From: Trichodesmium erythraeum IMS101
Lineage (GTDB): Bacteria > Cyanobacteriota > Cyanobacteriia > Cyanobacteriales > Microcoleaceae
Reading direction: 5' to 3'
Assembly: GCF_000014265.1 (NCBI RefSeq)
Contig: NC_008312.1
Location: forward strand, 5,100,001-5,132,000
Length of the DNA stretch: 32,000 bases
Shown: in pieces, positions 2,936 through 20,449 of the stretch
Position numbering within the stretch: position 1 is the stretch's first letter
Layout of the letters: each line of letters begins with the position of its first letter
Notes under the pieces: generated by a model
What the model saw: the letters and a program-made list of their open reading frames with translations, nothing else
The model's database searches: none
What the model was told of the DNA's origin: nothing
Made by a program: the position numbers and the translations under genes

Positions 2936-3706
2936 ATGGGTATTATATATATTGGCGATCGCGAAACAGGTAAAACTTCTCTTGCTCTTGAACTAGCTAA
3001 CCCTAGTAGTAATAATTTTGTCAAAGTTATTTCCCCCCCCTACAACGAACTAAAGGCTTTACTGTGGGACGATGTAGAGGGGAGAACCCGTGCTACGGAT
3101 GGCAGGGAAGCTACCTATGACCGGACCCTAGAAATAGAAGTTTTCCTTTCCACTAGGCGCAAAACAATATATACCGACTGGGTCGATACTCCTGGAGAAA
3201 TATGGCGAGGAAGTTGGCAAAAAAATAACCCGGACAAATGGGCCAGTTTTGTAGAAACTGCTCATAGTAGCCAAGGAGTTATTCTAGTTGTCCCTCCCTA
3301 TCGGGAAATTATCCGTCAAGATGGGGGAACCAACCCTGATGAATTTATTACTCAACAGCAGTGGGTACGACGGTTTGATAGCTGGGTAGATTTTTTCCGT
3401 TATGAGTGTCCAAATGTCAAACATATTGCTTTATGTCTGAATAAAGTGGACTTACTCCAAGGTATTGACCTGAAACAGGAAGCAGAAAAATTGGCCTTTC
3501 ATCCCCACAGCTCCCGTATGAACTGGAATGAACGCAATGACTATATCTTCAAGCGCTTTTTCCGTCCTATTCGCTCCCATATTGCTCAACTTAATAAATA
3601 CACTTCTGGTTTAAGTGTGAGGTGTTTTATTACTAGCATTTATAACCGTGAGCTTCTTGAGCTACCCTGGATTTATCTAGGAATTTATCTTAAAAGTGAC
3701 ATTTAA
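2936..3706 (+). CDS. P-loop GTPase-like protein, paralog 1 (canonical G1/G3/G4 motifs)
   Basis: 256 aa. G1/Walker A GDRETGKT (aa 7-14), G3 DTPGE (aa 84-88), canonical G4 NKVD (aa 169-172). The next paralog starts 16 nt downstream. Confidence 0.8.
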   Translation: MGIIYIGDRETGKTSLALELANPSSNNFVKVISPPYNELKALLWDDVEGRTRATDGREATYDRTLEIEVFLSTRRKTIYTDWVDTPGEIWRGSWQKNNPDKWASFVETAHSSQGVILVVPPYREIIRQDGGTNPDEFITQQQWVRRFDSWVDFFRYECPNVKHIALCLNKVDLLQGIDLKQEAEKLAFHPHSSRMNWNERNDYIFKRFFRPIRSHIAQLNKYTSGLSVRCFITSIYNRELLELPWIYLGIYLKSDI

Positions 3707-3722
3707 TTTTAAGTAAAAATTT

Positions 3723-4544
3723 ATGGGAAATATTTGTATCATCGGACCCAAGAACTCAGGAAAAACTACCTATCTCGCTGGACTGAGCTATTATTCTGAT
3801 TATGGAGGTTCTTGTAGTAAATATATAGTTTCACCTCTAAACGATGAGTCTCGCGAGCTAAAGCAGCAAGCGGAAGATACTATTTTGACGGGATTATCCT
3901 TTGATGCGACTGGTACCTATGTTCAGAGCGTAAATGACCTTAACTACTACTCTTTTAAAATTGAAGTAAAAAGGGGACTTTTTAAACCTAAAAATATCAT
4001 TATACTAAATGTTCGGGACTATCCTGGTGAAATATTTGAGAATATCCTCTATGCCAGTCAAACAGATAGTATTCACGAAGAGTTTATCAACGAATGTTTA
4101 ATGCCTGATGTTGATGGTTGTCTGTTGCTGTTTACTGAATGGGAAAATAGCAAAGACGATTTTTATAGTAAACTTATGAGTCGCTTTGTGGAAATAATGG
4201 ATGAACACGGTCGTCTTTACAACTATCGTCTAGCTGTGGTGATGAGTAAATGTGAGCGGGGAGAAATTTGGCCAGGACGTATTGACCCTGAAACCGACCT
4301 ATTCCGTGTTTATTTGAAAAAAACTTTTAAAACCCTCAAAAAAGACATTCCTAAACGGAACTTAAGATTTTTTGCCCTATCAACCTTCGGTGTTTTAGGA
4401 CGTTATGACCCACGGCCAAACCGTGTTGATGCTGTGGGTAGTGGGGGACGAGCTTCGACTTTACGGAAATCGGAGGGGAAATCTTGGAAACCCTATAATC
4501 TCATAGAACCCCTTTGTTGGTTAAATAAGGAGGGGCCAAAATAG
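3723..4544 (+). CDS. P-loop GTPase-like protein, paralog 2 (G4 replaced by SKCE)
   Basis: 273 aa. G1 GPKNSGKT (aa 8-15), G3 DYPGE (aa 99-103), SKCE at the G4 position (aa 175-178), LSTFG G5-like. C-terminal tail WKPYNLIEPLCWL is shared with paralog 3. Confidence 0.8.
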   Translation: MGNICIIGPKNSGKTTYLAGLSYYSDYGGSCSKYIVSPLNDESRELKQQAEDTILTGLSFDATGTYVQSVNDLNYYSFKIEVKRGLFKPKNIIILNVRDYPGEIFENILYASQTDSIHEEFINECLMPDVDGCLLLFTEWENSKDDFYSKLMSRFVEIMDEHGRLYNYRLAVVMSKCERGEIWPGRIDPETDLFRVYLKKTFKTLKKDIPKRNLRFFALSTFGVLGRYDPRPNRVDAVGSGGRASTLRKSEGKSWKPYNLIEPLCWLNKEGPK

Positions 4545-4601
4545 TTTGGATCTTAACTCCTAGGGTTGTCTTACAGTCTATAACAATACTTAAAGAAAGA
4601 A

Positions 4602-5507
4602 ATGGTATTATTTGGCAAACAAAAAAAACTAAACTCGGATTCTTTATCAAAAGCTTTCGGGGATGATTCGCTTTTACGTATTATTGGCGGTCGCAACTCT
4701 GGCAAAACTGCTTATCTGGCCTCTTTGGCCTACTGGCCTAATGCTAATCCAGAAAGTCCAGTCAAAAGCATTACGCCTATTGGTGAGGAAGCAGAAGAAC
4801 TTATAGACAAAGCACGAGATATCTTGGAACAGGGATTAGAACTTGAGCCAACTGACCTAAAGGCTGATATTAATGAAGTGAAAGATTATAGTTTTAGTAT
4901 CAATTTAAAAGACCGCTTTTCTTGGTTGGAGGGTTCAAAGAAGTCAGTTCAACTCAATATCAGTTGCAAGGACTATTCAGGAGAACTTTTCTCCGACCTC
5001 ATTTATAAAAAAGGAGACCCAAAGTTAGAAGGTTATCTGGAAGATTGCTGCTTGGCCAGAGGATTACTAATGCTGGTTGATGGCACAAGTCATCGTAAGG
5101 ATAAGGAGTTTGCTATGGGAATGGAGAAGTTGTTGATGGAAATAGATCGCTCAGAAATGGAGATGCAGCATCGGCGCATCGCGTTGGTATTGAGTAAATG
5201 TGAACAGTTAGAACTGTGGGTTAATCGACATCGACCAAGAAAAGTGGCAGCAAGATTTCCCAAATTGTCTGCTCAACTAGAAGCTTGGTCTTATTCTGGT
5301 GGGGGTACGGTAGAATATTTTACTACTTCGGCCTTTGGAATTTTAGGACGACAGTACCCAGAACCCAACTCAATGCGGTTGAGAAGATCGCGAGATGGAA
5401 CTGGTTCGGTGATTAAAAAGCCGAAACTTTGGCGCCCTTTTGGTTTGGTGTCACCCATTTATTGGCTTTGTACTGGAAAACGCCACTCGGAACTTGATCG
5501 AGACTAG
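4602..5507 (+). CDS. P-loop GTPase-like protein, paralog 3 (G4 replaced by SKCE)
   Basis: 301 aa. G1 GGRNSGKT (aa 29-36), G3 DYSGE (aa 124-128), SKCE (aa 198-201), TSAFG, tail WRPFGLVSPIYWL. Collinear with paralog 2 throughout. Confidence 0.8.
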   Translation: MVLFGKQKKLNSDSLSKAFGDDSLLRIIGGRNSGKTAYLASLAYWPNANPESPVKSITPIGEEAEELIDKARDILEQGLELEPTDLKADINEVKDYSFSINLKDRFSWLEGSKKSVQLNISCKDYSGELFSDLIYKKGDPKLEGYLEDCCLARGLLMLVDGTSHRKDKEFAMGMEKLLMEIDRSEMEMQHRRIALVLSKCEQLELWVNRHRPRKVAARFPKLSAQLEAWSYSGGGTVEYFTTSAFGILGRQYPEPNSMRLRRSRDGTGSVIKKPKLWRPFGLVSPIYWLCTGKRHSELDRD

Positions 5508-5556
5508 GTTGAGCTTGCTTCTTTTGTTATTTACTTAGGCTAATTTTTTTATAGTT

Positions 5557-8500
5557 ATGAGTATGGAGAATAAAATATATATTCACGAATTTAGTACTGG
5601 CATTGAGGTAAAAGGTACGGCAACAGCATGGGAATCAGGGGGTTTTACCGGAGAGTATATGAACCGGACTCTTGACAAAATTCCGCAGGCAGTATTAGAT
5701 TCAATCGCTAACAGAGAGTTTGCTTTAGCGGAAGGGGTGGTGAGAGCAGAGCCGGCGATCGTGGGGCGGGTAGTAAGACGTGGTAAGGAAAGCTGGTCGG
5801 TAGTAGCAGTCGTAACAAGGGGTCGAGACGATTTCGGACGGGGAGTATCCCTATACCGTTATTTTCTGTGTCAGGGAGATACAGGCATTGAAACTATTTT
5901 GCGCTGGATGAATAAACCGCTTTCGTGGGTGTTTAATCCGTTTGATAAGAGGGCGATCGGGGAACCTCATCAAGCAGATCATAGTTATATGGAGGTTAAC
6001 TTAATTAAATTTAAGGAGATGTTAGACCAGTCACCACCAATTATTTTTCTTGCTGCAGAGAGTTGTACACCGTTGCTATTAAATGAAATAACGCGAAAAC
6101 TACGGAGACCCAATGGCGATCGCTCATGGGCTTATAAAGTGGCTATGTTGGAACGACCAGAGTATTTTCAGGTCATTTATCCCGCTGATGCTAAAGCAGA
6201 GATGGTCATCAGGGAAGTTTTAGACCGCCGTCAAAGTTCCTCAGTGCTGATATCGGGAGAATCTGGAATTAAAACAGCAATTAAAGCGGTGATGAATGGT
6301 CGGGTGAAGCGGGGACATATTGAGAGTTTAGAAAATGCTCTGGGAAACCAAGGGCTTGATAAGAATTATTGGAAATCTGTTTTAGATAAAGAGGGCGCTT
6401 CTCAAGCTGTTACAGAAAATATTTATGGCGATCGCTATGTGCGACTGTTGACGTTAAAAGCAATGTTAGTTCCACAATTTTTGCCTGAATTTCTAGCTTG
6501 GCTTGCTCATTCACAGGAAGGGGAAATACATTATGGTACTTCGTTAAAGTTACAGCAATCAATGTTACAAGAAGCCCCGAAATTTACTGAACATTTTCCC
6601 CGACTTTCTGAATATCTCAAATGGGGAATTTGCTATACAATTGATGACTTGGTTGATGAGCCGAAAATTATTAAACAATCTCAATTCTTATTAACTAAGC
6701 CAGGGTTTTGGGGTCAGCTTTACAAAGAATCTCTTTCTAAGGAGTTGGAGAATGTTCTCGATCTTATGGGTGAAAAGAGACATAATTTGGAGTCTCTGAA
6801 TTCTCTATATCCCCAATGGAGTAGTTTATTGGGTAAAATTAATAAGTTTTGGTATCCGCAAGAACGACCCGATAATAAATATAAGAGTTTGGCAGAGTTG
6901 TTTGAGAAATTAGAAACCGCAAAATTGGCTGCTATTTTCTATCAAATAGCAGAGGGTAGCGTTCCGAAAAATTTGTTTGACAGTATTTTACCCTCAGATA
7001 AAAAATCAGAATCAACAAGACTTTTTAACAAGAAGATTGATCGCAAGAAAAGTGTAGGCGATCATATTAGTTCTGTTTTCAATGACGTTCAAACAACTTT
7101 TCTTTTAAGTCGGCGGACAGCAATTCAGAAATTGATGAACAATTCCGTAAAGTGGGAATACCTCACAACTTTGGATAATGCTTTGGACAACTCTACAGAA
7201 AACCAACTAAACGATAATGAATCATGGGAGTCATTTTTCGACAAGCAAGGAGCGAAAGGAGCATTGGATAAGAATTCTTACTCTAAGCGCATCATAAAAC
7301 TGTTGACATTAAAGGCCATCTTGATTCCACATTTTTTACCTCTTTTTCTGGAATGGCTTAGGAAATCAGAAGAATCGGAAAAACACTATAGTGTCTCTCA
7401 AAATCTACAGGAAGAGATATTAGGGAAAGTCCCAGAATTGACTCAAAATTGTCCAAAACTTTCTGAACAACTCAAATGGGGTATTTGTATCGTTATTCAT
7501 AGCTTGGTTAATTACCCACACATTCTTAAAGAGTCCAAGTTGTTGTTAACTAAACCAGGGTTGTGGTCGGAGGTTTACCAAGAATCTCTTTCTGGGGAGT
7601 TAGAGAATGACATAAATCTGATAAGTGCTTATATTTCTGGGAGAAGAGATTTGCCGTTTCAGGCAGTTCAATACCCTGAATGGGAGGAGCTGTTGAGGGA
7701 TATTATGAAGTTTTCGCCACGGGGACAACAAGCAGATTCTCGATATTGGACATTGGGGAATTTGTTTGAAGCAGTGGAAACACCAAAACTGGCTCAAGTT
7801 TTCTATGGAATAGGGGGGAATGAGGCTCCGACATCAATAATGCCTTCAAAAAAGGCTCAGAAATCAAAGGGTATTGTAAAAATTTGCTGGGATTTTTTGT
7901 TTGAAAAGATAGACATGGGAGATAGAATGCGTAGAATTTTTATTTTGTTGGTTTTCTTCGCCTCAGTATCCTTCGCTGGATATAGTGGATGGTTTCTGCG
8001 AGGTATTCTACAGCCTAACGGTTCAGCGTCAAAAAGGAATGAAAATTATCAAGCAATTAATGCTTTAATAGATGATTTGACTAAAGAAACAAAAAATATA
8101 TTTGATCAGAGCAAGAAGAATAATCAAGATGATAAGTTACCTAAAAAAATTATTGCTAGCATTAAGCAGAAGAAATTAAATAAGCCAGAAGAAATTTTAC
8201 CGTTTTGTATTGGAGACATACTAGAAATTAAAGATTTTCAGTACAGTGATATAAAGGCAGATAATCAAAAATCACTAAAATTTAGTGAAGCTATTTCTAA
8301 ATATCAGGATCAAAAAGGAATAAAAAATGCTGCTCCTGGGATAATTAAAAGAGATAAAAATACATATAAACAGTTAAAAATAGATATTGAAAATGAATGC
8401 TTGTCTCCTAGGCTTTCTGAGATAAATCAAGATAAATACGATAAAACTAATGCAGCAATTGAGGCAATAGCAAAAGGATTGGAAATAAAGATAAAAGATT

Positions 8501-8871
8501 TAGTTTCAAATAAAAGTTTACCTACTGATATCCCAGCAATATTTTATAAAGATTACTATCAAGAGCAAAACCCAAACCCACAAAACATCAACTCACAAGG
8601 AATTGTACAGCACTGTGTAAAAAAAGAACTGGGACTGGGGTCTGACTTCCAGTACAGCTATATTAGGCAATATAATAAAGAATGGGAGAAATTTAGTGAA
8701 ACAATCAAGAAATATCAGAGAGAAAAAGGTACAATGACAGCTCCTGATGGAGTAATTAATCAGGAGAAAGATACACAAAAAACATTAAAAGAAAATATTC
8801 AGAAAAAATGCTTAAAATCTACAACAGTTGAATCCCTTAACCTGAAAAACCCAAAACCACCTAGTACATAA
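5557..8871 (+). CDS. Giant (1104 aa) single-pass membrane protein: N-terminal alpha/beta region, two ~215-aa helical repeats, one TM helix, lysine-rich C-terminal region with two ~70-aa repeats
   Basis: Long uninterrupted ORF 49 nt after GTPase paralog 3. Internal repeats at aa ~256-470 and ~537-757. TM segment RRIFILLVFFASVSFAGYSGWFL (aa ~792-815, nt ~7930-8001). C-terminal repeats at aa ~882-951 and ~1018-1088. The stop overlaps the next start (TAATG). Confidence 0.85.
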   Translation: MSMENKIYIHEFSTGIEVKGTATAWESGGFTGEYMNRTLDKIPQAVLDSIANREFALAEGVVRAEPAIVGRVVRRGKESWSVVAVVTRGRDDFGRGVSLYRYFLCQGDTGIETILRWMNKPLSWVFNPFDKRAIGEPHQADHSYMEVNLIKFKEMLDQSPPIIFLAAESCTPLLLNEITRKLRRPNGDRSWAYKVAMLERPEYFQVIYPADAKAEMVIREVLDRRQSSSVLISGESGIKTAIKAVMNGRVKRGHIESLENALGNQGLDKNYWKSVLDKEGASQAVTENIYGDRYVRLLTLKAMLVPQFLPEFLAWLAHSQEGEIHYGTSLKLQQSMLQEAPKFTEHFPRLSEYLKWGICYTIDDLVDEPKIIKQSQFLLTKPGFWGQLYKESLSKELENVLDLMGEKRHNLESLNSLYPQWSSLLGKINKFWYPQERPDNKYKSLAELFEKLETAKLAAIFYQIAEGSVPKNLFDSILPSDKKSESTRLFNKKIDRKKSVGDHISSVFNDVQTTFLLSRRTAIQKLMNNSVKWEYLTTLDNALDNSTENQLNDNESWESFFDKQGAKGALDKNSYSKRIIKLLTLKAILIPHFLPLFLEWLRKSEESEKHYSVSQNLQEEILGKVPELTQNCPKLSEQLKWGICIVIHSLVNYPHILKESKLLLTKPGLWSEVYQESLSGELENDINLISAYISGRRDLPFQAVQYPEWEELLRDIMKFSPRGQQADSRYWTLGNLFEAVETPKLAQVFYGIGGNEAPTSIMPSKKAQKSKGIVKICWDFLFEKIDMGDRMRRIFILLVFFASVSFAGYSGWFLRGILQPNGSASKRNENYQAINALIDDLTKETKNIFDQSKKNNQDDKLPKKIIASIKQKKLNKPEEILPFCIGDILEIKDFQYSDIKADNQKSLKFSEAISKYQDQKGIKNAAPGIIKRDKNTYKQLKIDIENECLSPRLSEINQDKYDKTNAAIEAIAKGLEIKIKDLVSNKSLPTDIPAIFYKDYYQEQNPNPQNINSQGIVQHCVKKELGLGSDFQYSYIRQYNKEWEKFSETIKKYQREKGTMTAPDGVINQEKDTQKTLKENIQKKCLKSTTVESLNLKNPKPPST
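6322..7827 (+). repeat. Intragenic tandem duplication (two ~215-aa modules, nt ~6322-6966 and ~7165-7827) inside the giant protein
   Basis: Shared blocks in the same order: LLTLKA(M/I)L(V/I)P.FLP.FL.WL, HY, P.LSE.LKWGIC, LLTKPG.W, Y.ESLS.ELEN, YP.W..LL, LFE..ET.KLA..FY.I. Confidence 0.8.
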
Positions 8872-9995
8872 TGAAACTTTACTTCTATATTCTTTCCGGC
8901 ATAACTTCCGCCCTTCTTGGATGGAACATAGGACAACTGTTCCTCAGTGACTTTGGCTTGTTTAACCTTTTGGCTGAAGTTGGCATTTTTCCGGAAATAA
9001 TCTTGTTTCCCTGCATTGCTATCTCCCTGGCGATGGGCAGTATTGCTAACGAAATCTTCCTTAGTAACCCCACTCGTCCCAAAATCAGCTTGCGGACGCT
9101 ACCCGCTCCCTTGTTCATCGCTTTCATTATAGGAATTATCTTTGGTTTAGTAGCGGGTGGCATTTACCAAATTTTCTTAGCTCCCGAAATAGCTGTTCCC
9201 CCTTTTATTGTTCGCATCTGTGGTTGGTTAATAGTGGGAGCTTCCGTAGGCTCTGCCGAAGGGTTGAGTTGGCGGTGGCGTAGTATTCAAGCTGGCAACC
9301 CTAAATACTTCCGAAAACGACTTTTTCTCAGTATGATCACAGCTAGTATTGCCAGTCTCATAGCTGCTATCGCCTTTGAATTATTGCGCCAAATTCAGGG
9401 ATCTATGCCAGCATCTTTCAAATCTTATGAAGATCCTTTCGGTTTTGCTATTTTGGGATTATGTTTGGGCATTGCTTTTAGTATTACCAACTTTACCCCC
9501 AGTTATCTGCCAGCATTGAGAGCAGGAAGTGGATTCGAGTATTCAGGAGAAGAATATGATGACATCGATCCCCGTCGGACAGTCCTCAGTCGAGACTATC
9601 CCAGGATAAATAGCTCCCTCCTGAAGTTTATCAGTTACCGTTCTCAATACAAATACGATAATGACTACAAAATTGAGGAAGGTTTATCTATGGAACTTCC
9701 CGACCAGGGAATTATTCGCATTGGTTCAGCCAACAAAGCTCAGATTTGCCTTCCCCACCTCCCTCTGCACGCTGCAGATATTAGACTAAAAAGAAAAAAC
9801 GCGATTTTATTTCCCAACCCAAGGTTTTTTGATACCGTTGCCATTAACGGGACGCGACTCAGTTCTAGTCGTAATATTGATCTCAAACATAACTATGTCC
9901 TTACTTTCTACACTAATGCTCAAGATGATAATATTGAAGTTCCCGAATGCTACCGTATGGTCTTCTATAACCGCTTTTTCGATCCGATGGCTTAG
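8871..9995 (+). CDS. Polytopic (~6 TM) glycine-zipper membrane protein with C-terminal divergent FHA-like domain
   Basis: 374 aa. The ATG shares one base with the upstream TAA (TAATG at 8869-8873). TM helices contain GxxxGxxxG (GIIFGLVAGG, GASVGSAEG). C-terminus IIRIGSANKAQICLPHLPLHAADIRL...VAINGTRL fits the FHA pattern loosely. Confidence 0.75.
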   Translation: MKLYFYILSGITSALLGWNIGQLFLSDFGLFNLLAEVGIFPEIILFPCIAISLAMGSIANEIFLSNPTRPKISLRTLPAPLFIAFIIGIIFGLVAGGIYQIFLAPEIAVPPFIVRICGWLIVGASVGSAEGLSWRWRSIQAGNPKYFRKRLFLSMITASIASLIAAIAFELLRQIQGSMPASFKSYEDPFGFAILGLCLGIAFSITNFTPSYLPALRAGSGFEYSGEEYDDIDPRRTVLSRDYPRINSSLLKFISYRSQYKYDNDYKIEEGLSMELPDQGIIRIGSANKAQICLPHLPLHAADIRLKRKNAILFPNPRFFDTVAINGTRLSSSRNIDLKHNYVLTFYTNAQDDNIEVPECYRMVFYNRFFDPMA

Positions 9996-13871: not shown

Positions 13872-15197
13872 ATGCTTGACGTAACCATTACCCCCCATCG
13901 AGAATTTCTAGCGGCTGATACCCCTGGACAAAAGCTGTTTGTCATGTTAAAATTACGTCCAAACGCAATTGTTTCAGCAAGTCGTCCTTCAACAACCTTC
14001 ACCTTTGTTATTGATACCAGTGGTTCAATGTATGATGATAGTGAAGTGGGGAGGCCGAAAATTGATATTGTTGTTGAAGCTCTCGAACGCTTAGTTACTG
14101 ATATACAAGCAGATCCTCGCGATCGAATTGCCCTAGTACAATTTGATGATTCAGCATCAGTTTTGTTGCCCTTGACTGCTGCCACAGATACTGTTACTCT
14201 CCAAAATGCCATCTCCAAATTACGAAGTTTTAGTGGTGGAACAAGGATGGCTTTGGGAATAGAAAAATCCCTGAATTTATTGAAAGACTCTGTTCTCAGT
14301 AGTCGTCGCACTCTCATTTTTACTGATGGACAGACAATAGATGAAATTGACTGTCGAGAACTAGCGGTACAATTTGCCCAAGCTGGAATTCCTATTACTG
14401 CTCTCGGTGTTGGTGACTACAATGAAGACTTGTTAGTCTATTTGAGTGATCACACTGGGGGTCGCGTTTTTAATGTTGTGGAACAAGCCAGTAATACTGG
14501 AACCACAGATATAGCAATTTCTGAGCTGCCACAGACAATTTTTCAAGAAGTACAACAGGCTCAAGCTGAGGTCATTAATAACCTCAAGCTTAGTGTTCGT
14601 ACTGTCAAAGGGGTTAATTTACAAAGACTTAGCCGTGTTTATCCAGACCGCGCTGATATTCCTGTTACTCAAGAACCTTATCTCATCGGCAGCGCTCTCG
14701 CTAATGACGATACTATTTTTATTCTTGATTTTGATATTGATAGCAGAGCTCAATCACGGGTTCGTATTGCTCAATTAGGTTTAACTTACGACATTCCCGG
14801 TCAGCAGCGACGAGGAGAACTACCCCCTCAAAATCTTGTTATTCAGTTGGTTGCCGGAAAAGGTGGAATTGCCCAAACAAATCCGGAAGTCATGGGATAT
14901 GTACAACAGTGTAACATTGGTCAATTAGTCGATCATGCAGCAGCAGTAGCTGATAGCAACCCTGATGAAGCAGCAAAACTTTTGGAAACAGCAAAACGAG
15001 TAACTGTCAAAATTGGAAATGAAGCCATGTTAAAAACTCTCAATCTTGGTATTGAAGAAGTACGCAAAACCCGTAAACTGTCTTCAGGAACCCGCAAGAC
15101 TGTAAAAATGGGTGCTAAGGGTAAAACTGTAAAAATGAGCGATAGTCCTAATGATCAACTTTCAGAAGAACAAATCCGTAATATGACAGGAACCTAG
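13872..15197 (+). CDS. Soluble vWA-domain protein (TerY-like)
   Basis: 441 aa. MIDAS DTSGS (TFTFVIDTSGSMYDD), GGTRMALG, LIFTDGQTID. No TM segment. Basic C-terminal tail with repeated KTVKM. Confidence 0.8.
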   Translation: MLDVTITPHREFLAADTPGQKLFVMLKLRPNAIVSASRPSTTFTFVIDTSGSMYDDSEVGRPKIDIVVEALERLVTDIQADPRDRIALVQFDDSASVLLPLTAATDTVTLQNAISKLRSFSGGTRMALGIEKSLNLLKDSVLSSRRTLIFTDGQTIDEIDCRELAVQFAQAGIPITALGVGDYNEDLLVYLSDHTGGRVFNVVEQASNTGTTDIAISELPQTIFQEVQQAQAEVINNLKLSVRTVKGVNLQRLSRVYPDRADIPVTQEPYLIGSALANDDTIFILDFDIDSRAQSRVRIAQLGLTYDIPGQQRRGELPPQNLVIQLVAGKGGIAQTNPEVMGYVQQCNIGQLVDHAAAVADSNPDEAAKLLETAKRVTVKIGNEAMLKTLNLGIEEVRKTRKLSSGTRKTVKMGAKGKTVKMSDSPNDQLSEEQIRNMTGT

Positions 15198-15329: not shown

Positions 15330-16049
15330 ATGTATATTACCTGTGAAACTTGTGGCTACGATAATAATCCCACGGATGCCGAATACTGCGAGGCATGTGG
15401 TGCAGAGTTGAAAAGTACTAGTCCCGCTATCATTGAACAAAATCAACCAATTACAACTCCTAAAGTTATTCCTATGACACCTTCAGGACCAGAGTTAGCT
15501 GTTACTACTTGTCAAGCTTGTGGCTATGATAATAATCCTATTGATGCTGAATATTGTGGCGCATGTGGTGCAGAGCTAAAAAGCATCGCTGCCACTACCA
15601 TTCAAACAAATCCAACAATTACGACTCCTAAATTCATTCCCATCACACCTTCAGGGCCAGGATTAGAATCTACTTCTGCCATTCCCACACCTTCTTTATC
15701 GACAACAATATCCCCTGCACGTTTAGTTGCTAAACAACCCAATGTCCCTCAATCTGAATTTCCTCTAAACAATGTTGCAGTGGTAGGGGTGTTCGATCCT
15801 GATAGTGGTCCAGTGGATATCGATCTTGAAAGTTTTCTGGGTGGGGAAACAGTGTCACGTCAGCACGCCGAAATTTACCCAGAATATGGGCATTGGATGG
15901 TAAAAGACCTAGGATCACTTAACGGTATTTTTATCAAACCTAGTGGTCAAACTCGCTTTGGGGCAAGAATTACCACTCCTATGAATTTGAATCCTGGGGA
16001 CGAAATTGCCTTTGGAAAAGTTCAATTTGTATTTCGACTAGGAAGTTAG
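15330..16049 (+). CDS. Double zinc-ribbon FHA-domain protein
   Basis: 239 aa. Two CxxC-x11-CxxC ribbons (CETCGYDNNPTDAEYCEACG, CQACGYDNNPIDAEYCGACG) lie within a tandem ~56-aa duplication. C-terminal FHA signature GGETVSRQHAEI...KDLGSLNGIFI...GDEIAFG. Confidence 0.85.
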   Translation: MYITCETCGYDNNPTDAEYCEACGAELKSTSPAIIEQNQPITTPKVIPMTPSGPELAVTTCQACGYDNNPIDAEYCGACGAELKSIAATTIQTNPTITTPKFIPITPSGPGLESTSAIPTPSLSTTISPARLVAKQPNVPQSEFPLNNVAVVGVFDPDSGPVDIDLESFLGGETVSRQHAEIYPEYGHWMVKDLGSLNGIFIKPSGQTRFGARITTPMNLNPGDEIAFGKVQFVFRLGS

Positions 16050-16117
16050 CAAAAACTATAGCTAATTTGAGGACTTCACCACTTTGTTAACATCTTACAT
16101 CATCATTAAGTAAGCTC

Positions 16118-18019
16118 GTGATTTCAGAAAATACTTCGTTACAAATTGAACAGTTATCAATAACTGTACTCGAAAATATAGGTCAACGTAATAATCAAAT
16201 TCGCTATTTTAAAGTACGCTTTGACAGTGAAGATAGCGAAATGAATCAAATAGGAATGTTGCGTGTAGGTTCGGCAACAGGTTTACTTCAGCAGGAGTTA
16301 CAACTGCGGGAAATTTTAGGTGAGTATGCCTTAGTCGCTCCCCTCATCGCCAAAACTACTGTTTCCGACATTGCACAAATTATAACAGTATCGTCACCTG
16401 CAAAAGATACTGTTGTCCAAACCCCTATAGACGAAACTTTGACATCAAGTTGTGATAATGGAACAAGTCAGAAAACTTTACTTCAGACCAATGAAGAACA
16501 AATTGAGACGCCATCAGAGGTCGAAACCGAAATAGAAGCGGAAACTATGGAAACTGTTGTAGAAAAAACAATAGATTCTGAAGTTCTAGCCGATGAAAAA
16601 TCCTTTGATGAAGATACCCTTGATGCGGTAGACTTAGACTCTTTAAAATCTTCTGATGAGCCTAATAATGGTGACTATCTTGAAGATGAGTATTATCCAG
16701 AAATACCTCTTCCCGGTAATGAAGGGGAACAGTTGTTGCTGTTAACAGAGTTTCCTGATAGCCAACTCACCCTCAGTAACTGGTTAAAAAATTCTCCTAG
16801 TCCACTAGAAGCCTTAAAATTGAGCACACAAATTTGTCAGTTTTTCTGGTATCTCCATCAAAAAAAATGGTGCCTAATTGACCTTGACCCAGATTTGATA
16901 GCAGTCGGTAAACCTATTTGCTGTTTTGACCTCACTTGTGCTTATCCTGAAGCTAGGCCGCTCACCAGTGGATTAATAGGAACTTATTGCGCTCCTGAAT
17001 TAGCCTTTGTTCCAACACCTGAGGAGAAAAGTAGCACTTACACTATTGGTGCTTTACTTTATCATATGTTGCATGGAGACCCACCTACCAAGGAACTGAA
17101 GTATAAAGAATGTTCAGTACCCCTCTTTGCTCAACTACTAGCGTTATCTTTGTCTCCCCTTATTGATGAACGTTTTTCTCTGGTACAGTTACGGAGTTTG
17201 CTCATTGAGGCTTATAATACTCTAGATACTGTTCGTGTGAGTTGGGAAATAGCTAGTAAATCAACGGTGGGACTATCTCCACAACGACTGCACAATGAAG
17301 ACAGTTACGGAATCACTCAAAGTGATTCTGATGGTTCTGAAATCGTTGTTTTAGCAGCTTTAGCAGACGGAATGGGAGGAATGGCCCAAGGAGAAGTGGC
17401 TAGTCGTTTAGCAGTGAAGACTATTCTTAATGGATTAAGTGGAGAAGTTGAAAATACCCGAAATAATAGAGAGCGTTGGCTGATTTATCTTATAGAACAG
17501 GCTAATGCTGAAGTTTCAAAGGTAGCTCCAAATGGGGGAACAACATTAAGTTTAGTGTTATTAGAGTCGACAAAAATGTCCCTCGCACATGTAGGTGATA
17601 GTCGTATTTATTTGATTCGCGATCGAGAAATTCGTCAGTTGAGCGAAGATCATTCTTTAGTTGCTCTCCTTGTCGCTAGCGGCCAAATTTCTGCAGCAGA
17701 AAGTCGGCAGCATCCAGAGCGCAATGTTCTAACTAAGTCTTTGGGGGCGAAAAAGCGCCTTTCCCAGGGTTATGTACAAACTGTTACTGATATAGAGTTG
17801 CAAGATGGTGATGTTATTTTGTTATGCTCTGATGGTGTTTGGGATCTGGTAAGTGACCAAGAACTGACAGAACTTTTCATGCCAATGAGCTCAACAACAG
17901 TGTTGCAGACTGCTGTCAACCAAGGGATAAAGCTGGTTTTAAAACGTGGCGCACCAGATAATGCCACTCTATTAGCGTTACGCTGTCAGATAACTCCTAC
18001 TCAAGTTTATTTCCCTTAA
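16118..18019 (+). CDS. Degenerate protein-kinase-like domain (probable pseudokinase) with acidic insert, fused to a PP2C (PPM) Ser/Thr phosphatase
   Basis: 633 aa with a GTG start. Kinase-like C-lobe: LIDLDPDL in place of HRDLKPEN, CCFDLTC in place of DFG, YCAPEL retained; no GxGxxG or VAIK Lys seen. Acidic insert aa ~95-200. PP2C motifs NEDSYG, LADGMGG, GGTTLS, HVGDSRIYL, LCSDGVWD, PDNATLLAL. Confidence 0.85.
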   Translation: MISENTSLQIEQLSITVLENIGQRNNQIRYFKVRFDSEDSEMNQIGMLRVGSATGLLQQELQLREILGEYALVAPLIAKTTVSDIAQIITVSSPAKDTVVQTPIDETLTSSCDNGTSQKTLLQTNEEQIETPSEVETEIEAETMETVVEKTIDSEVLADEKSFDEDTLDAVDLDSLKSSDEPNNGDYLEDEYYPEIPLPGNEGEQLLLLTEFPDSQLTLSNWLKNSPSPLEALKLSTQICQFFWYLHQKKWCLIDLDPDLIAVGKPICCFDLTCAYPEARPLTSGLIGTYCAPELAFVPTPEEKSSTYTIGALLYHMLHGDPPTKELKYKECSVPLFAQLLALSLSPLIDERFSLVQLRSLLIEAYNTLDTVRVSWEIASKSTVGLSPQRLHNEDSYGITQSDSDGSEIVVLAALADGMGGMAQGEVASRLAVKTILNGLSGEVENTRNNRERWLIYLIEQANAEVSKVAPNGGTTLSLVLLESTKMSLAHVGDSRIYLIRDREIRQLSEDHSLVALLVASGQISAAESRQHPERNVLTKSLGAKKRLSQGYVQTVTDIELQDGDVILLCSDGVWDLVSDQELTELFMPMSSTTVLQTAVNQGIKLVLKRGAPDNATLLALRCQITPTQVYFP

Positions 18020-18283
18020 TTCCCGACTTCTCATACTAATTTAGGGTTTGCTAAATAACTCTTATGAGTGAGAATAGGTAGGGGGTTCCGTCGGATATGT
18101 ATAAGAATTAGGAGGCACGCAGCCACGGAGCAGTGGGAATTTACAGGGGATGTAGTCAGAAATATTGTCCCTCAATTTTTCTACTCTTGTCTGGTTGAAA
18201 AAAAGAATGTTATATCAAATCTGTATTGTTAGCAGAGATGATATCAAATTTTACTTTTAACTTCCTAAGATGATATAAAATCT

Positions 18284-18318
18284 TACTTTTGACTTTTGAC
18301 TTTTTACTTTTTACTTCC
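18284..18318. repeat. Heptanucleotide tandem array (TACTTTT GACTTTT GACTTTT TACTTTT TACTTCC), STRR-like
   Basis: Five 7-nt units ending 13 nt upstream of the ATG at 18332. A partial duplicate (TTTTACTTTTAACTTCCTAAGATGAT) sits ~60 nt upstream at ~18250-18275. Confidence 0.7.
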
Positions 18319-18331
18319 TAAGTGATGATCG

Positions 18332-20449
18332 ATGAACAATATTTGTCCGTCCTGCTTACATGAAAATGCCCCTGGTGTTAACTACTGCATCGTCTGTGGA
18401 ACAGATTTGACCTCCACAGCAACAACTTCCCCATCTTCTGTATCGGGGCTTCATCTCCCTATGGGAACATTACTCAAACAAGGATGGTATAAAATAGAGA
18501 AAGTTCTCGGTCAAGGAGGATTTGGAATTACTTACAAAGCTATTTACTGCCTTAATTCTACTTTAGTTGCTATCAAAGAGTTGTGGCCAGAAAGTGGATA
18601 CAGACATGATAAGTCCGTTGTCTGGCCGCCCTCAATTGCTCCCATAGACCAGAAAGAACAAGTTGAAAAGTTTAAATTAGAAGCAGCTTATCTACAACGT
18701 TGTAACTCTCCTAATATTGCCAAAGTTTACGATTGTTTTGAGGAAAATTCCAGTATTTATATGGTAATGGAATTTATTGATGGAGTTTCTCTCTCAAGCC
18801 TTATGGTCAACCAAAAATGTTTACATGAGAACAAAGTTATTGAATATGCAAAACAGATCGCTAATGCTTTAGTAGTCGTTCATGAAAACAATTTATTGCA
18901 TCGGGATATCAAACCTGAGAATATAATGATCGATAGTAGCGATCGCGCAGTTTTAATCGACTTTGGCACAGCCCGGGAGTTCATCGCTGGAAAAACTGGA
19001 GACCTGACACAACTACTCACCCCTGGATACGCTCCTTTTGAGCAATATTCAAAAAATAGCAAACGTTATGCAGCTTCGGACATTTACGCTCTGTGCGCTT
19101 CCATGTATGAATTATTGACTGGAGAGTTACCTAGTGGAGCAGTTGAAAGGGCTACTGCCTTTTCTGGAGGTGCACCAGACCCTCTGCTCCCACCGCGACA
19201 AATTAACTCTCTCATTAGTCCTCATCTGGAAAAAGTGATTTTAATGGGAATGCGCTTTCGTGTTGAAGAACGCATCCAAACTGCTGAGGAATTAATTAAT
19301 GCTTTTGATGGAAAACTTGTTTCTCCTCTGCATCAAAAGGCTAAAGATTATGTCAGCAAAGGTGATTTGAATAATGCTGTCAGTACCTACGAAACTTGTC
19401 TAGAGCGAGAACCGGATAATGGAGAAGCTACCGTCGAATTGGCTTTAGTTTTAGTATATATGGATGAAGACCGCGCTGTAACTGTAGCCCAAAAAGGTAT
19501 GCAGCTTAAACCCCAGGATGGGCGTAGTTATGGTGTGTGTGGTTTAGTTGGTTGTCATCGTCGCCAATGGAATCATGCTGCGCAACAGTTAGAACAAGGT
19601 ATTCGCCTCAGTCCGAAGGAAGCCTGGATACATGCTAATCTGGCTTGGGCTTTGGGACAACAGGGAAATTGGGAATCCGCAGAGAGGACGATTCAACAAG
19701 GGTTACAGTTGGACCCAAATTCGACCTTCGCTTTAGGTTTAAAAGCTTGGATATCGTTCCACAAAAAACAATGGAGATTTGTGATTCAAGCTGGAACCCA
19801 AGCGATTTTTAAGTCTCAGCAGGAAGGGTCTCGGATAGCAATGGCGTTGCAAGCCTGGGTGTATCCATTCACGATCGCTGCATTAGATAAAGTGACTACT
19901 AAAAAAGGCGGTGATGTTAAGCGACGGCTCAGAAATTTTGTGGTTCAAGTGCCGAATAATTCTATTGCTTTGGGATTTCAAGCTTGGTATGAGTATCGCG
20001 ATCGTAACCTCAATGCCTGTCGCCAAAGTTTGGAGTTGGCCTGTAAGTGTGGGGATATACCTAATTGGGTAGCACGGGATCGGGGTTTGATAGACGAACA
20101 CCTCAATGATTTGCCTAGTGCTTTGGAGTGGTACAAGCACCGCCACCAGGAAATACCTCAAGATGCTTGGATTTGTTATCGTTTGGGGACAGTGTTAGCA
20201 AGACTCAACCAGTGGCAGGATGCAAAAGGGTATCTAGAACAGGCAGTTAAACAAGACCCAAATTTGGCGCCAGCTTATCGTAACTTAGGTTGGGTGTTAT
20301 CGAATTTGCTGACTGTAGATGGTAAGATTCAATCAGTACAGGATTTAATGGCTGCTTATCGTCAGGCGTTAGCATTGTATGAAGTGCAAGATATGAATGA
20401 AGCGCAACAGATTAGAGCAATGTTTCAGGCGATCGATATTTTGTTATAG
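18332..20449 (+). CDS. Zinc-ribbon Ser/Thr protein kinase with C-terminal TPR repeats
   Basis: 705 aa. N-terminal CPSCLHENAPGVNYCIVCG. Hanks kinase motifs LGQGGFG, VAIKEL, HRDIKPENIMI, DFGTARE, GYAPFEQ. C-terminal ~370 aa of TPR-like repeats (e.g. AVSTYETCLEREPDNGEA, AKGYLEQAVKQDPNLAPAY). Confidence 0.9.
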   Translation: MNNICPSCLHENAPGVNYCIVCGTDLTSTATTSPSSVSGLHLPMGTLLKQGWYKIEKVLGQGGFGITYKAIYCLNSTLVAIKELWPESGYRHDKSVVWPPSIAPIDQKEQVEKFKLEAAYLQRCNSPNIAKVYDCFEENSSIYMVMEFIDGVSLSSLMVNQKCLHENKVIEYAKQIANALVVVHENNLLHRDIKPENIMIDSSDRAVLIDFGTAREFIAGKTGDLTQLLTPGYAPFEQYSKNSKRYAASDIYALCASMYELLTGELPSGAVERATAFSGGAPDPLLPPRQINSLISPHLEKVILMGMRFRVEERIQTAEELINAFDGKLVSPLHQKAKDYVSKGDLNNAVSTYETCLEREPDNGEATVELALVLVYMDEDRAVTVAQKGMQLKPQDGRSYGVCGLVGCHRRQWNHAAQQLEQGIRLSPKEAWIHANLAWALGQQGNWESAERTIQQGLQLDPNSTFALGLKAWISFHKKQWRFVIQAGTQAIFKSQQEGSRIAMALQAWVYPFTIAALDKVTTKKGGDVKRRLRNFVVQVPNNSIALGFQAWYEYRDRNLNACRQSLELACKCGDIPNWVARDRGLIDEHLNDLPSALEWYKHRHQEIPQDAWICYRLGTVLARLNQWQDAKGYLEQAVKQDPNLAPAYRNLGWVLSNLLTVDGKIQSVQDLMAAYRQALALYEVQDMNEAQQIRAMFQAIDILL

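Follow-up and report, generated by a model that had tools for sequence, protein, structure and literature searches.

A twelve-gene GTPase and vWA/FHA/kinase cluster of cyanobacteria, a candidate composite trans-envelope conflict system

Twelve co-oriented genes of Trichodesmium erythraeum IMS101, located in a window of 32,000 nt on contig NC_008312.1, join a GTPase/adaptor module to a vWA/FHA/kinase/phosphatase module. We tentatively read the cluster as a composite trans-envelope switch of two modules that may serve as an abortive-infection or programmed-death conflict system, a reading that we favor and hold somewhat short of probable. The union of GTPase and vWA/FHA/kinase modules is of a kind previously predicted solely by comparative genomics, in other phyla. 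What appears new here, judging from profile searches, is a cyanobacterial version whose adaptor matches no Pfam GAP1 model.

Gene content and organization

The cluster spans positions 2936-20449 of the window (Table 1), and the ~17.5-kb co-oriented array of the original prediction was borne out in ORF coordinates, plus strand and gaps. The ORF at 13305-13694, set aside there as an orphan beside eleven ORFs, is conserved at ~100 bits in all orders and brings the count to twelve. Module 1 comprises G1-G2-G3, GA, M1, V1 and V2, and module 2 comprises OR, V3, FH, PP and KI. Gaps of 16, 57 and 49 nt separate G1, G2, G3 and GA, and GA and M1 share 1 nt. M1 and V1 overlap by ~70 nt provided that V1 starts at 9925, and V2 follows after 67 nt. 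OR is flanked by 595 nt on the V2 side and 177 nt on the V3 side, and the V3-FH, FH-PP and PP-KI gaps measure 132, 68 and 312 nt. Housekeeping genes adjoin the Trichodesmium copy on both sides.

Table 1. Features of the cluster (nt, positions in the window; aa, positions in the protein)
Feature	Coordinates	Strand	Description	Basis
G1	2936..3706	+	Divergent DO-GTPase-family P-loop GTPase	GDRETGKT, DTPGE, NKVD; profile comparison with G3
G2	3723..4544	+	DO-GTPase-family GTPase	GPKNSGKT, DYPGE, SKCE; sub-gathering Pfam scores
G3	4602..5507	+	DO-GTPase-family GTPase	GGRNSGKT, DYSGE, SKCE; DO-GTPase2
GA	5557..8871	+	1104-aa single-pass membrane adaptor	Hydropathy, internal duplications, family comparison
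GA N-domain	aa 1-225, nt 5557-6231	+	Cytoplasmic alpha/beta domain	
GA helical domain	aa 237-511, nt 6265-7089	+	Helical domain	
GA duplicate	aa 520-802, nt 7114-7962	+	Duplicate of helical domain	Internal duplication
GA TM	aa 794-812, nt 7936-7992	+	TM helix	Hydropathy
GA tail	nt 7993-8868	+	Periplasmic, two PG-binding-like repeats	
M1	8871..9995	+	Multi-pass glycine-zipper membrane protein; cytoplasmic FHA-like tail (degenerate), aa ~275-374	
V1	9925..11208	+	Signal-anchored periplasmic vWA (MIDAS DFSGS), C-terminal TM helix	VWA_2 29.4 bits
V2	11276..12709	+	TM helix, periplasmic vWA (DTSSS), M1-like glycine-zipper module, cytoplasmic tail	VWA 80.9 bits
OR	13305..13694	+	129-aa soluble protein, fold without known relative	Conserved at ~100 bits
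V3	13872..15197	+	Cytoplasmic vWA (DTSGS MIDAS), conserved C-terminal domain, basic tail	VWA 72.7 bits
FH	15330..16049	+	Two Zn ribbons, Pro-rich linker, canonical FHA	FHA 44.5 bits, DZR 38.7 bits
PP	16118..18019	+	Predicted pseudokinase (aa ~200-370) and active PP2C (aa ~385-625)	PP2C_2 66 bits, Pkinase 19.5 bits
KI	18332..20449	+	N-terminal Zn ribbon, predicted active Hanks-type Ser/Thr kinase, TPR array	Pkinase 143 bits

Pfam profiles recovered the FHA, vWA, Pkinase, PP2C, Zn-ribbon and DO-GTPase domains that had been anticipated, with vWA matches on three proteins. The MIDAS motifs are complete in 3/3 of these, and neither the kinase nor the PP2C has lost its catalytic motifs. The proposed placement of parts inside and outside the cell holds as far as hydropathy allows. 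As foreseen, Pfam and PADLOC searches found no nuclease, peptidase, TIR or Sir2 effector in the window; beyond generic kinase and PP2C hits, PADLOC matched no validated defence-system model.

GTPases and giant adaptor

Three GTPases had been called, and Pfam supports G2 and G3 as DO-GTPases. G3 scores 36.4 bits against DO-GTPase2, above the gathering score of 27, and its close paralogue G2 (hhalign E=4e-53) scores 23 bits against DO-GTPase1 and 19 bits against DO-GTPase2, both below 27. The G1 protein of the window has no Pfam match and is linked to the family through G3: their orthologue profiles align at 94.7% (hhalign, E=5.6e-8) with the P-loop, Walker B-Glu and NKxD in register. Residues G7, G12, K13, D84, G87 and E88 are invariant among G1 orthologues. 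DO-GTPase1 accounts for 26 of 35 hits, and since this exceeds the 23 G2/G3 sequences, at least three G1 orthologues match it as well.

A GAP1 identity of the giant protein could not be demonstrated; no Pfam GAP1 model matched GA. Pfam searches with 24 members of its family gave a C-terminal PG_binding_1 in 4, fused PP2C or caspase domains, and nothing else. This compact family has 566 representatives in a set of 1.84 billion proteins, and the members that are named come from cyanobacteria. AF2 models of GA have a pLDDT of 86. The tail is hypervariable, being detectable in just 1/35 loci.

Membrane and periplasmic vWA proteins

M1 is a candidate effector with 5-6 hydrophobic segments by hydropathy and invariant GxxxGxxxG arrays, and it is homologous to the membrane and tail module of V2 (hhalign 97.5%, E=5e-12). 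FHA domains are the best PDB matches of its tail (E=0.04-0.45). The claim of FHA or FHA-like domains on three proteins stands for FH, where Pfam finds the double Zn ribbon and FHA; for the tails of M1 and V2 an FHA-like fold is tentative, with marginal support.

The V1 reading frame is open as far back as 9829, and its start lies within M1 in a different frame; PGAP annotates an overlap of ~60 nt on two plasmids as well. V1 matches the TIGR03436 VWFA-type region over aa 85-406 and has hydrophobic segments at its N- and C-terminus. In many Nostocales the V2 slot holds a different vWA protein.

Phosphorylation module

OR lies directly upstream of V3 in cyanobacterial loci of all orders that have the second half. 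It has no relative in Pfam or the PDB, is missing from non-cyanobacterial versions of the module and is specific to the cyanobacterial system. V3 is the TerY-like component and the most conserved protein of the cluster (54-94% identity). Full-length relatives adjoin FHA/PP2C/kinase genes on non-cyanobacterial contigs. FH also carries the 4-Cys prefix domain NF045510 (30.7 bits), and median identity across its FHA part is 67%.

The pairing of a pseudokinase-PP2C with an active kinase, proposed from the ORFs, is upheld by Pfam, by inspection of catalytic motifs and by the alignment of PP orthologues. In this alignment the HRD Asp position varies (D/S/N/Q/H) and DFG is replaced by an invariant FDLT, while the PP2C motifs ADGMGG, GDSR, DG and DN are invariant. 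The same fusion occurs in the non-cyanobacterial locus L080. KI carries GQGGFG, VAIK, HRDIKPEN, DFG and APFE, and Pfam also finds TPR families and Zn_Ribbon_1.

Conservation and modularity

GA led us to 73 cyanobacterial loci. In 61/64 of them GA is preceded by the GTPase trio, in 52/56 it is followed by M1 and V1, and in 10/10 FH and PP come after V3. Of the 50 loci testable for the second half, 40 carry it, collinear with the first half across all orders. The 12-gene order is collinear in dozens of cyanobacterial genomes across orders, and the flanking genes differ beyond genus level. The arrangement is not due to chance. Core proteins are ~50-60% identical between orders, and identity drops roughly with taxonomic distance. 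The cluster is enriched in filamentous or colonial taxa, and several MAGs or genomes have two or three loci each.

The halves are separable and are usually joined in cyanobacteria, in agreement with the composite nature first proposed. On non-cyanobacterial contigs module 2 is found by itself, in one case among DnaB, SNF2 and T4CP genes, and module 1 is so far seen only in cyanobacteria. Seven cyanobacterial loci extend at least 6.5 kb beyond V1 yet lack the second half, and a few appear to carry only the first. Both observations would suit two functionally unrelated operons that are merely adjacent, as would the 595-nt and 312-nt gaps, which could hold internal promoters. We nevertheless find this explanation hardly credible: collinear joining extends to all orders without conserved flanks, V2, a first-half protein by its M1 homology, sits beside OR and V3, and the same union arose independently in actinobacteria. 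Fusions also tie the halves together. One protein (P0075) joins PP2C to GA, and in a sister lineage P0064/65 combines a caspase, an FH-like Zn ribbon, the GA helical domain and M1.

Accessory genes and mobility

Other cyanobacteria add PG-binding tails and periplasmic lipoproteins that are ARC6-like (IMS) or beta-lactamase-like, with 0-6 lipoprotein genes in slot B depending on the locus. The Beta-lactamase2 lipoproteins examined retain SxxK in 4/4 and SDN in 3/4. The Trichodesmium copy lacks all of these lipoproteins, is otherwise intact and is a reduced version.

Eight plasmid records carry the system, six of which are mobilizable or conjugative. On plasmid B of Anabaena variabilis ATCC 29413 (35.8 kb) the whole system is the main cargo, including a full-length KI orthologue with 50% identity. 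No phage or viral contigs matched the cluster.

In 10 loci the gene immediately before G1 encodes a TraG/VirD4-like (T4SS-coupling-protein-like) ATPase, and such a gene also lies inside the non-cyanobacterial module locus (~31% identical over the full length). The ATPase could be the motor, where present, of a trans-envelope machine for secretion, DNA transfer or assembly of a surface structure, gated by threonine phosphorylation as in the T6SS, with GA as a TagF-like gatekeeper. Two PDB searches with the GA N-domain ranked TagF first, the PP2C-GA fusion mirrors the TagF-PppA protein of Agrobacterium, and TagF acts by binding Fha (PMC5995506). The multi-pass membrane proteins, lipoproteins and PG-binding parts would also fit. 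However, the match to TagF does not reach significance (E 6e-3 to 6e-2, TM-score 0.20-0.25) and a TagF-like fold is unproven, the ATPase gene is missing from most loci and from the Trichodesmium window, and the conserved parts of the cluster include no secretin, pilin, sheath, relaxase or other piece of such a machine. FH scores 17 bits against the T6SS Fha/TagH model, whose cutoff is 120. We therefore judge such a machine improbable.

Possible function

From the observed gene content, domains, catalytic-motif status, synteny, modularity, fusions and plasmid carriage, we infer how the components may interact, what they may sense and what they may do. The GA tail and the periplasmic vWA domains of V1 and V2 would contact the cell wall or an incoming ligand, joined in other species by the ARC6-IMS or beta-lactamase-like lipoproteins. 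In the cytoplasm, the conserved N-domain and helical domain of GA may scaffold the three GTPases and touch M1. Module 2 would be a TerY-P-like phosphorylation switch in which KI phosphorylates system components, FH reads the pThr marks, PP resets them and V3 is a metal-dependent docking partner. Output would fire only after both the GTPase state and a phospho-threshold are passed, most likely as membrane permeabilization by the M1/V2 glycine zippers, or as caspase proteolysis in the sister lineage. The hosts would be mostly filamentous or colonial cyanobacteria.

Several observations argue for a conflict role. Gene order persists across orders despite differing flanks, the fusion proteins link the parts, and the kinase, PP2C and three MIDAS motifs are intact. 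A constant core is set against a variable periphery (GA tail, slot B, replaceable V2), the organization given for NTP-dependent conflict systems by Kaur et al. (PMC7159879). Periplasmic parts are wall-oriented (PG_binding_1, ARC6-like IMS, Beta-lactamase2), and plasmid carriage and multiple loci per genome point to mobility. Module 2 also exists without module 1 outside cyanobacteria, and triads of the TerY-P-like kind are documented both as additions to conflict systems and in stand-alone versions that protect against phage (PMC11090510, PMC7699616). The actinobacterial union of DO-GTPases with kinase, PP2C and vWA points the same way. Against this role stand the PADLOC and effector results, the lack of phage or viral matches, a well-conserved core whose identity gradient seems more vertical than defence islands usually show, the unproven folds of the M1/V2 tails and GA, and a Trichodesmium copy stripped of lipoproteins between housekeeping genes.

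The wall-directed domains suit a housekeeping envelope role equally well. A non-conflict signaling complex for envelope homeostasis or morphogenesis would sense peptidoglycan or septal status through its PG-binding, ARC6-IMS, beta-lactamase/PBP-like and vWA domains and act through the GTPases and Ser/Thr phosphorylation to adjust wall synthesis, division or filament integrity, in parallel with PASTA-kinase/FHA/PP2C division control in Gram-positive bacteria. We consider this unlikely, yet a serious contender. Every periplasmic domain has an association with the cell wall or with division, conservation of the core is strong and its order strict, and identity follows a taxonomy-like gradient. 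The enrichment in filamentous or colonial taxa fits as well, and FH seems to share its architecture of double Zn ribbon, Pro-rich region and FHA with the filament-integrity protein FraH. Yet many cyanobacteria do without the system, it rides on mobilizable and conjugative plasmids, and some genomes hold several copies or short versions. A hypervariable sensor tail, a caspase fusion in one lineage and the loss of all lipoproteins from an otherwise intact Trichodesmium copy also count against it.

Relation to known systems

The proposed likeness to TerY-P and GTPase-centric systems is supported, and the statement that no described system unites both was too strong. Section 29 of Kaur, Burroughs, Iyer & Aravind (eLife 2020, PMC7159879) describes, as a computational prediction only, a GAP1-N2 'third theme' in which DO-GTPase/GAP1 is linked to a Zn-ribbon kinase, PP2C and a standalone vWA; it is given for actinobacteria only, and GAP1-N2 systems are not listed for cyanobacteria. 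Shared features are DO-GTPase paralogues that contain a Walker-B Glu, a large adaptor encoded after them that has a TM helix at its C-terminal end and a domain directed at the wall outside the cell, the linked active kinase, active PP2C and standalone vWA, further TM-containing and vWA components, and an association with multicellular bacteria. In contrast to that theme, GA matches none of the Pfam GAP1 models and belongs to a compact family with cyanobacterial named members, the GTPases number three instead of one or two, none with Zn ribbons or TM helices, and an FNIII-repeat protein is absent from the cluster. The cyanobacterial system adds the FHA protein, the pseudokinase-PP2C, OR, the M1/V2 glycine-zipper modules and the ARC6-IMS or beta-lactamase-like lipoproteins.

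V3, PP and KI match the make-up of the TerY-P triad (vWA, PP2C and Ser/Thr kinase) down to the Zn ribbon on the kinase. The module is found on its own in other phyla and also attached to bigger conflict systems, and stand-alone triads related to it give protection from phage (PMC11090510, PMC7699616). V3 scores just 20.7 bits against PADLOC TerY, over the MIDAS region only, and PP and KI match only generic models. Unlike in the triad, the KI Zn ribbon is N-terminal, the phosphatase bears a pseudokinase, and a Zn-ribbon-FHA protein is a constant extra, as is OR in cyanobacteria.

The T6SS PpkA/PppA/Fha1/TagF pathway likewise places a kinase, PP2C and FHA at the membrane on a multi-protein envelope complex, and the non-significant TagF match of GA and the PP2C-GA fusion recall it, but T6SS structural genes are lacking and FH falls outside the Fha/TagH family. 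The Deinococcus radiodurans operon DRA0331-DRA0334 encodes a vWA, an STPK, an FHA protein and an FHA-PP2C, with reported biochemical evidence for push-pull antagonism of the FHA protein and the PP2C on kinases (bioRxiv 10.64898/2026.01.23.701218). It combines the same four functions in one operon and is likened here by function. Its phosphatase has a KI-FHA domain where PP has a pseudokinase, and the operon has no GTPase or membrane module and is tied to the DNA-damage response.

Organization of the gene cluster

The cluster is real, sharply defined and conserved. Its twelve genes lie on one strand, and the coordinates, orientation and spacing originally predicted for the open reading frames were all reproduced. 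The first half encodes three GTPases (G1-G3), the giant adaptor GA, the membrane protein M1 and the vWA proteins V1 and V2. The second half encodes OR, V3, FH, PP and KI. Housekeeping genes on the opposite strand flank the cluster, with a cobA/hemD fusion on the upstream side and uvrC on the downstream side. GA of the window is 100% identical to a protein encoded by a Trichodesmium erythraeum MAG, which assigns the window to this species. We read the whole, with slightly less than even confidence, as a double-gated, envelope-sensing conflict or cell-death system whose interactions, sensed signal and output we infer.

Coordinates of the genes and other features discussed; positions are those of the window unless a compared locus (L number) or accession is named
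Feature	Position	Strand	Description
cobA/hemD fusion	35-1573	-	upstream flank
AT-rich stretch	1574-2935		
G1	2936-3706	+	predicted GTPase
G2	3723-4544	+	predicted GTPase
G3	4602-5507	+	predicted GTPase
GA	5557-8871	+	giant single-pass adaptor, 1104 aa
M1	8871-9995	+	glycine-zipper membrane protein
M1/V1 overlap	9925-9995; L156:11976-12034; L157:19320-19378		out of frame
V1	9925-11208	+	vWA protein, ORF open from 9829
V2	11276-12709	+	vWA membrane protein
AT-rich stretch	12710-13304		
OR	13305-13694	+	conserved 129-aa protein
V3	13872-15197	+	vWA protein
FH	15330-16049	+	Zn-ribbon-FHA protein
PP	16118-18019	+	pseudokinase-PP2C fusion
KI	18332-20449	+	Ser/Thr kinase
AT-rich stretch	20450-24168		
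Spacer ORF	21072-21512	-	146 aa
uvrC	24169-26037	-	downstream flank
SUI1-family gene	26976-27401		
Second Ser/Thr kinase	28555-30444	-	629 aa
TraG/VirD4-like ATPase	L017:5796-7424		also in 9 other loci
TraG/VirD4-like homologue	L080:15075-16673		
Okeania sp. SIO3B5 locus	L003:2-11548		
A. variabilis plasmid B system	NC_007411.1:10-17781 and 33628-35751		complete system
Sister Trichodesmium lineage	L154:79-8683		compared with window 5557-11208

In the window, the end of M1 and the start of V1 overlap by ~60-70 nt in different frames. The same overlap is found in most of the loci mapped by tblastn and in the PGAP annotation of two plasmids (L157 and L156, the latter A. variabilis plasmid B), and its recurrence suggests conserved translational coupling.

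Three long AT-rich stretches (GC ~0.26-0.41 in 1-kb windows) hold no convincing genes, and their sole ORF has a faint pilin-like match (E=0.04). A tblastn search of these spacers detected no remnants of the slot-B lipoprotein genes or the T4SS coupling-protein gene that other loci carry. Rfam and tRNA scans of the window returned no RNA family and no tRNA; promoter and terminator scans did no better than on shuffled sequence, and operon boundaries were not obtained. An unrelated second Hanks-type Ser/Thr kinase (Pkinase, 111 bits) lies ~8 kb downstream of the cluster on the opposite strand.

Conservation across cyanobacteria

Of the 73 loci found by scanning one genome per species with a GA alignment, almost all carry a cyanobacterial label; a single MAG is labelled just 'bacterium'. 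Oscillatoriales, Nostocales, Pleurocapsales, Chroococcales, Spirulina and Prochloron are all represented. Gene order is kept throughout: G1-G2-G3-GA-M1-V1-(variable slot)-V2-OR-V3-FH-PP-KI. The GTPase trio lies upstream of GA in 61 of 64 loci and M1 and V1 downstream of it in 52 of 56; FH and PP follow V3 at all ten loci (10/10). The second half is present at 40 of the 50 loci where this was testable, and the explanation that the two halves are neighbours by chance is rejected as having scarcely any probability. Flanking genes are common within genera only, so the cluster is a discrete unit that starts at G1.

Ten loci lack the second half. Three are cut at V2, and seven look like genuine short versions (L015/L016, L055, L058, L061, L064, L065) that carry G1-G3, GA, M1 and V1, in some cases with genes for lipoproteins or beta-lactamase-like proteins behind them, and have at least 6.5 kb downstream free of the second half. 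An SNF2 helicase follows V1 in L061, and L064 is a second, short copy in Dulcicalothrix PCC 7102, which has its full copy at L028. The Okeania sp. SIO3B5 locus is rearranged or circularly permuted: a GA-like gene comes straight after OR-V3-FH-PP-KI, without intervening GTPase genes.

Plasmid carriage

GA homologues occur on eight plasmid records, six of which are predicted to be mobilizable or conjugative. Plasmid B of A. variabilis ATCC 29413 (35.8 kb) encodes the complete system, running from G1 to PP2C, through a gene for one further hypothetical protein (315 aa), and across the origin to the kinase. At ~20 kb the system is the main cargo of this plasmid, the remainder being replication, partition and recombination genes. 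In Gloeothece PCC 7822 it resides on a conjugative plasmid. Searches of phage records and viral contigs revealed no carrier.

GTPases and the adaptor

G3 matches DO-GTPase2 at 36.4 bits, above the gathering score of 27, and G2 has sub-threshold DO-GTPase matches of 23 and 19 bits (Pfam models PF19975/PF19993); G1 of the window has no Pfam match. Among 35 G1, G2 and G3 orthologues, 26 match DO-GTPase1 and 25 match DO-GTPase2 (E<=0.01; best 3.5e-11). Comparison of orthologue profiles with hhalign identifies G2 and G3 as close paralogues (E=4e-53) and aligns G1 with G3 (94.7%, E=5.6e-8) across the P-loop, D-x-x-G-E and NKxD. The G, K, D, G and E of the P-loop and Walker B Glu (DxxGE) are invariant in all three paralogue sets. 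On these sequence grounds, G1 is predicted to be a divergent member of the DO-GTPase family. The side-by-side arrangement of the three genes in 61/64 loci corresponds to the adjacent paralogues characteristic of DO-GTPases. No solved relatives were found for the GTPases.

GA is placed like a GAP1 protein, directly downstream of DO-GTPase genes. It also has the multi-domain build of this type (N-domain, helical domain, TM helix and PG-binding-like tail), and in relatives it is fused to PP2C or caspase, as GAP1-type proteins often are to effectors. GA was not tied to GAP1 by homology. None of 24 diverse family members matches any GAP1 model (GAP1-N1, -N2, -M, -C; presumably contained in Pfam) at E<=1. 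They match no other Pfam family either, apart from PG_binding_1 at the C terminus of four members and fused PP2C or caspase domains. An exhaustive profile search of 1.84 billion proteins found only 566 representatives of the family; the best 150 of these 566 matches are all close relatives, with no bridge to GAP1 visible among them.

AlphaFold models of GA are confident (pLDDT 86; N-domain pTM 0.86) and predict an alpha/beta N-domain and an all-helical domain; hydropathy places the single TM helix at aa 794-812. Foldseek searches with the GA core and N-domain found no solved structure at E<=0.001. TagF entries took ranks 1-6 in both structure searches (E=6e-3 to 9e-2, TM-score 0.17-0.25, rmsd 7-9 Å), a possible resemblance of the models that is a lead and not a result. 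TagF regulates the T6SS, binding Fha, and Agrobacterium encodes it as a fusion with PppA (PMC5995506).

The Trichodesmium GA is ~390 aa longer than a typical ~715-aa family member, with internal duplications of the helical domain (aa 237-511 and 520-802) and of a periplasmic tail module; this tail is detectable in one of 35 loci. Wall-directed domains and good conservation would suit a wall or morphogenesis signalling complex outside conflict, the main rival to our reading. Plasmid carriage and patchiness, multiple copies and short versions, and the hypervariable tail speak against such a complex, and we consider it unlikely.

Membrane and vWA proteins

V1, V2 and V3 each contain a vWA domain with a complete D-x-S-x-S MIDAS motif. 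Among the leading solved relatives of the V3 and V2 vWA profiles is 8s05_A, a 387-aa 'Conserved protein' (top match for V3, E=1.7e-12; second for V2, E=2.1e-15). Hydropathy assigns 5-6 hydrophobic segments to M1. In V1 it indicates an anchor at the N terminus and a TM helix at the C terminus, and in V2 one TM helix ahead of the vWA domain with several behind it. Together with that of GA, these profiles fit the division into inside and outside domains of the original prediction.

The glycine-zipper membrane module and C-terminal tail of M1 are homologous to those of V2 (hhalign 97.5%), and this module has no characterised relatives. FHA or FHA-like domains had been proposed on three proteins. 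The one on FH stands, at 44.5 bits against a PF00498 cutoff of 20.7. The M1 and V2 tails are possible FHA-like domains. They have no PF00498 match, and three hhalign comparisons with the genuine FHA domain of FH found nothing. Searched against the PDB, each of two independent tail profiles has FHA domains as its best matches, at marginal E-values (Ki-67, E=0.04-0.09; 3gqs, which we take to be an FHA domain, E=0.45). The tails have 'IGS' in place of G-R and lack the Ser of S-x-x-H, so that the pThr-binding Arg and Ser are both missing.

The phosphorylation module

FH combines two Zn ribbons with a canonical FHA domain that conserves G-x-x-x-S-R-x-H and N-G. It is not a member of the T6SS Fha1/TagH family (TIGR03354 VI_FHA, 17.3 bits, cutoff 120). 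We assume that it shares its architecture with the Anabaena filament-integrity protein FraH (Alr1603), which has a double Zn ribbon, a Pro-rich region and an FHA domain. PP proved to be the expected pseudokinase fused to a PP2C domain. Its orthologues differ at the Asp position of HRD and invariably have FDLT in place of DFG; every one of the PP2C motifs is invariant. Its phosphatase part is, judging from these motifs, a putatively active PP2C. KI carries a Zn ribbon at its N terminus, a Hanks kinase and a TPR array, and the fully canonical Hanks motifs uphold its designation as an active kinase.

OR, originally regarded as an orphan, is conserved at every locus that has the second half. A spurious ORF was rejected because of this conservation. 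No solved relatives of OR were found, and OR and GA have no characterised relatives.

Variable slots and a coupling-protein-like ATPase

In slot A, which separates the GA core from M1, PG_binding_1-like domains or additional genes are found. Slot B, between V1 and V2, holds 0-6 genes, all from a single family of lipoproteins with 132 members in 44 loci. These proteins share an N-terminal beta-rich domain followed by an ARC6-like IMS (NTF2-like) or a beta-lactamase-like domain; the latter has S-x-x-K in 4/4 proteins examined and SDN in 3/4. The Trichodesmium window contains neither slot-B genes nor remnants of them.

Ten loci, among them those of Microcoleus, Tolypothrix and Sphaerospermopsis, have a gene for a T4SS coupling-protein-like (TraG/VirD4) ATPase immediately before G1 and in the same orientation. 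Three further loci retain remnants of it, and the window has no such gene. L080, a non-cyanobacterial locus of the phosphorylation module, contains a homologue ~31% identical to the ATPase before G1. That the cluster is a TPP-gated transport or assembly machine seems to us quite improbable.

Separable modules and fusion proteins

The alignment of OR varied too much to serve as the seed of a scan, so metagenome contigs were searched with V3, whose conservation is the highest in the cluster. Low-GC contigs with OR and a 56-58% identical V3, taken to be cyanobacterial, carry V2-OR-V3-FH-PP-KI. On contigs with a GC of 0.49-0.70, full-length V3 relatives stand beside Zn-ribbon-FHA, kinase-like-PP2C and Zn-ribbon-kinase genes, and OR, the GTPases, GA, M1 and V1 are not detectable. 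The second half is thus an autonomous, widespread TerY-P-like module. It occurs once among DnaB, SNF2 and T4SS-coupling-protein genes. The first half was found in cyanobacteria only.

GA-family fusion proteins bridge the parts of the system, as far as their predicted domains tell. P0075 from Planktothrix joins PP2C, a coiled coil, the GA core and a TM helix. P0064/65 from a sister Trichodesmium lineage joins a caspase, an FH-type Zn ribbon, the GA helical domain and full-length M1.

Relationship to described systems

GTPase-centric conflict systems were defined by DO-GTPases together with GAP1, and an actinobacterial GAP1-N2 theme includes a Zn-ribbon kinase, a PP2C and a standalone vWA protein (Kaur et al. 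2020, PMC7159879). Because this theme joins both halves, the earlier statement that no described system unites them was too strong. The system is not categorically new; it is a cyanobacterial version of a kind known so far from comparative genomics only. Like this 'third theme', it has a kinase with a Zn ribbon, a PP2C and a standalone vWA protein (KI, PP and V3) linked to GTPase genes, here in 40/50 loci. Unlike the theme, whose reported range is actinobacteria only, the cluster belongs to a different phylum, has an adaptor without detectable GAP1 homology and three GTPases, and adds an FHA protein, the pseudokinase-PP2C fusion, OR, the M1/V2 module and lipoproteins. No FN3 family, indicative of the FNIII-repeat companion of GAP1-N2, was found in the window proteins or the scanned slot A and slot B proteins.

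The combination of vWA, PP2C and Ser/Thr kinase also resembles the TerY-P triad. V3 matches the PADLOC TerY model weakly (20.7 bits over 44 residues). PADLOC gave no match to a TerY-P-specific phosphatase or kinase model and no specific defence-system assignment for the window, and NCBIfam gave generic vWA and FHA matches only. TerY-P triads are documented as add-ons of conflict systems, and stand-alone relatives are antiphage (PMC11090510, PMC7699616). The comparison shows that DO-GTPases have been combined with a TerY-P-like phospho-switch in two phyla whose adaptors have no detectable similarity, which argues for double-gated control by NTP and phosphorylation as a general design principle.

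Proposed function

In the reading as a conflict or cell-death system that senses the envelope, wall-directed sensors in the periplasm would act through GA on the GTPase switch, a TerY-P-like circuit would set a phospho-threshold, and glycine-zipper proteins or a fused caspase would provide the output. A more specific version, which we find rather doubtful, is a cyanobacteria-specific, plasmid-transmissible immune or cell-death machine of 12 to 18 genes. Its periplasmic wall-binding sensors would detect envelope breach or phage attachment, and the GTPase trio and the TerY-P-like kinase/FHA/PP2C circuit would form a double threshold. M1, V2 or the fused caspase could then kill the infected cell and protect the filament, and the central adaptor would have a previously unseen fold.

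If true, such a machine would be the first experimentally accessible GTPase-centric conflict system, a class known from genome predictions only, with no tested example found in the literature. Our literature search likewise found no functional study of the cluster, FraH-type proteins or the plasmid B genes. The system is large and sharply delimited, and several of its conserved protein families have no characterised relatives. As it is the main cargo of plasmid B in A. variabilis ATCC 29413, a model strain open to genetic manipulation, the whole class becomes directly testable.

Trichodesmium is a globally important nitrogen fixer, and the collapse of its blooms by caspase-associated cell death has long been observed. 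The proposed machine, if real, could connect to this caspase-linked programmed cell death. In the sister Trichodesmium lineage (L154, L155, L005), V3 is 95% and V2 90% identical to the window proteins, and the cluster has undergone remodelling, with a split GA, a V1 whose vWA domain (aa 99-330) is lost and apparently no G3. The caspase (Peptidase_C14) fusion of this lineage, a 980-aa protein whose protein cluster has 20 member sequences, is a concrete molecular lead for bloom cell death and may be one of the Trichodesmium metacaspases of the programmed-cell-death literature.
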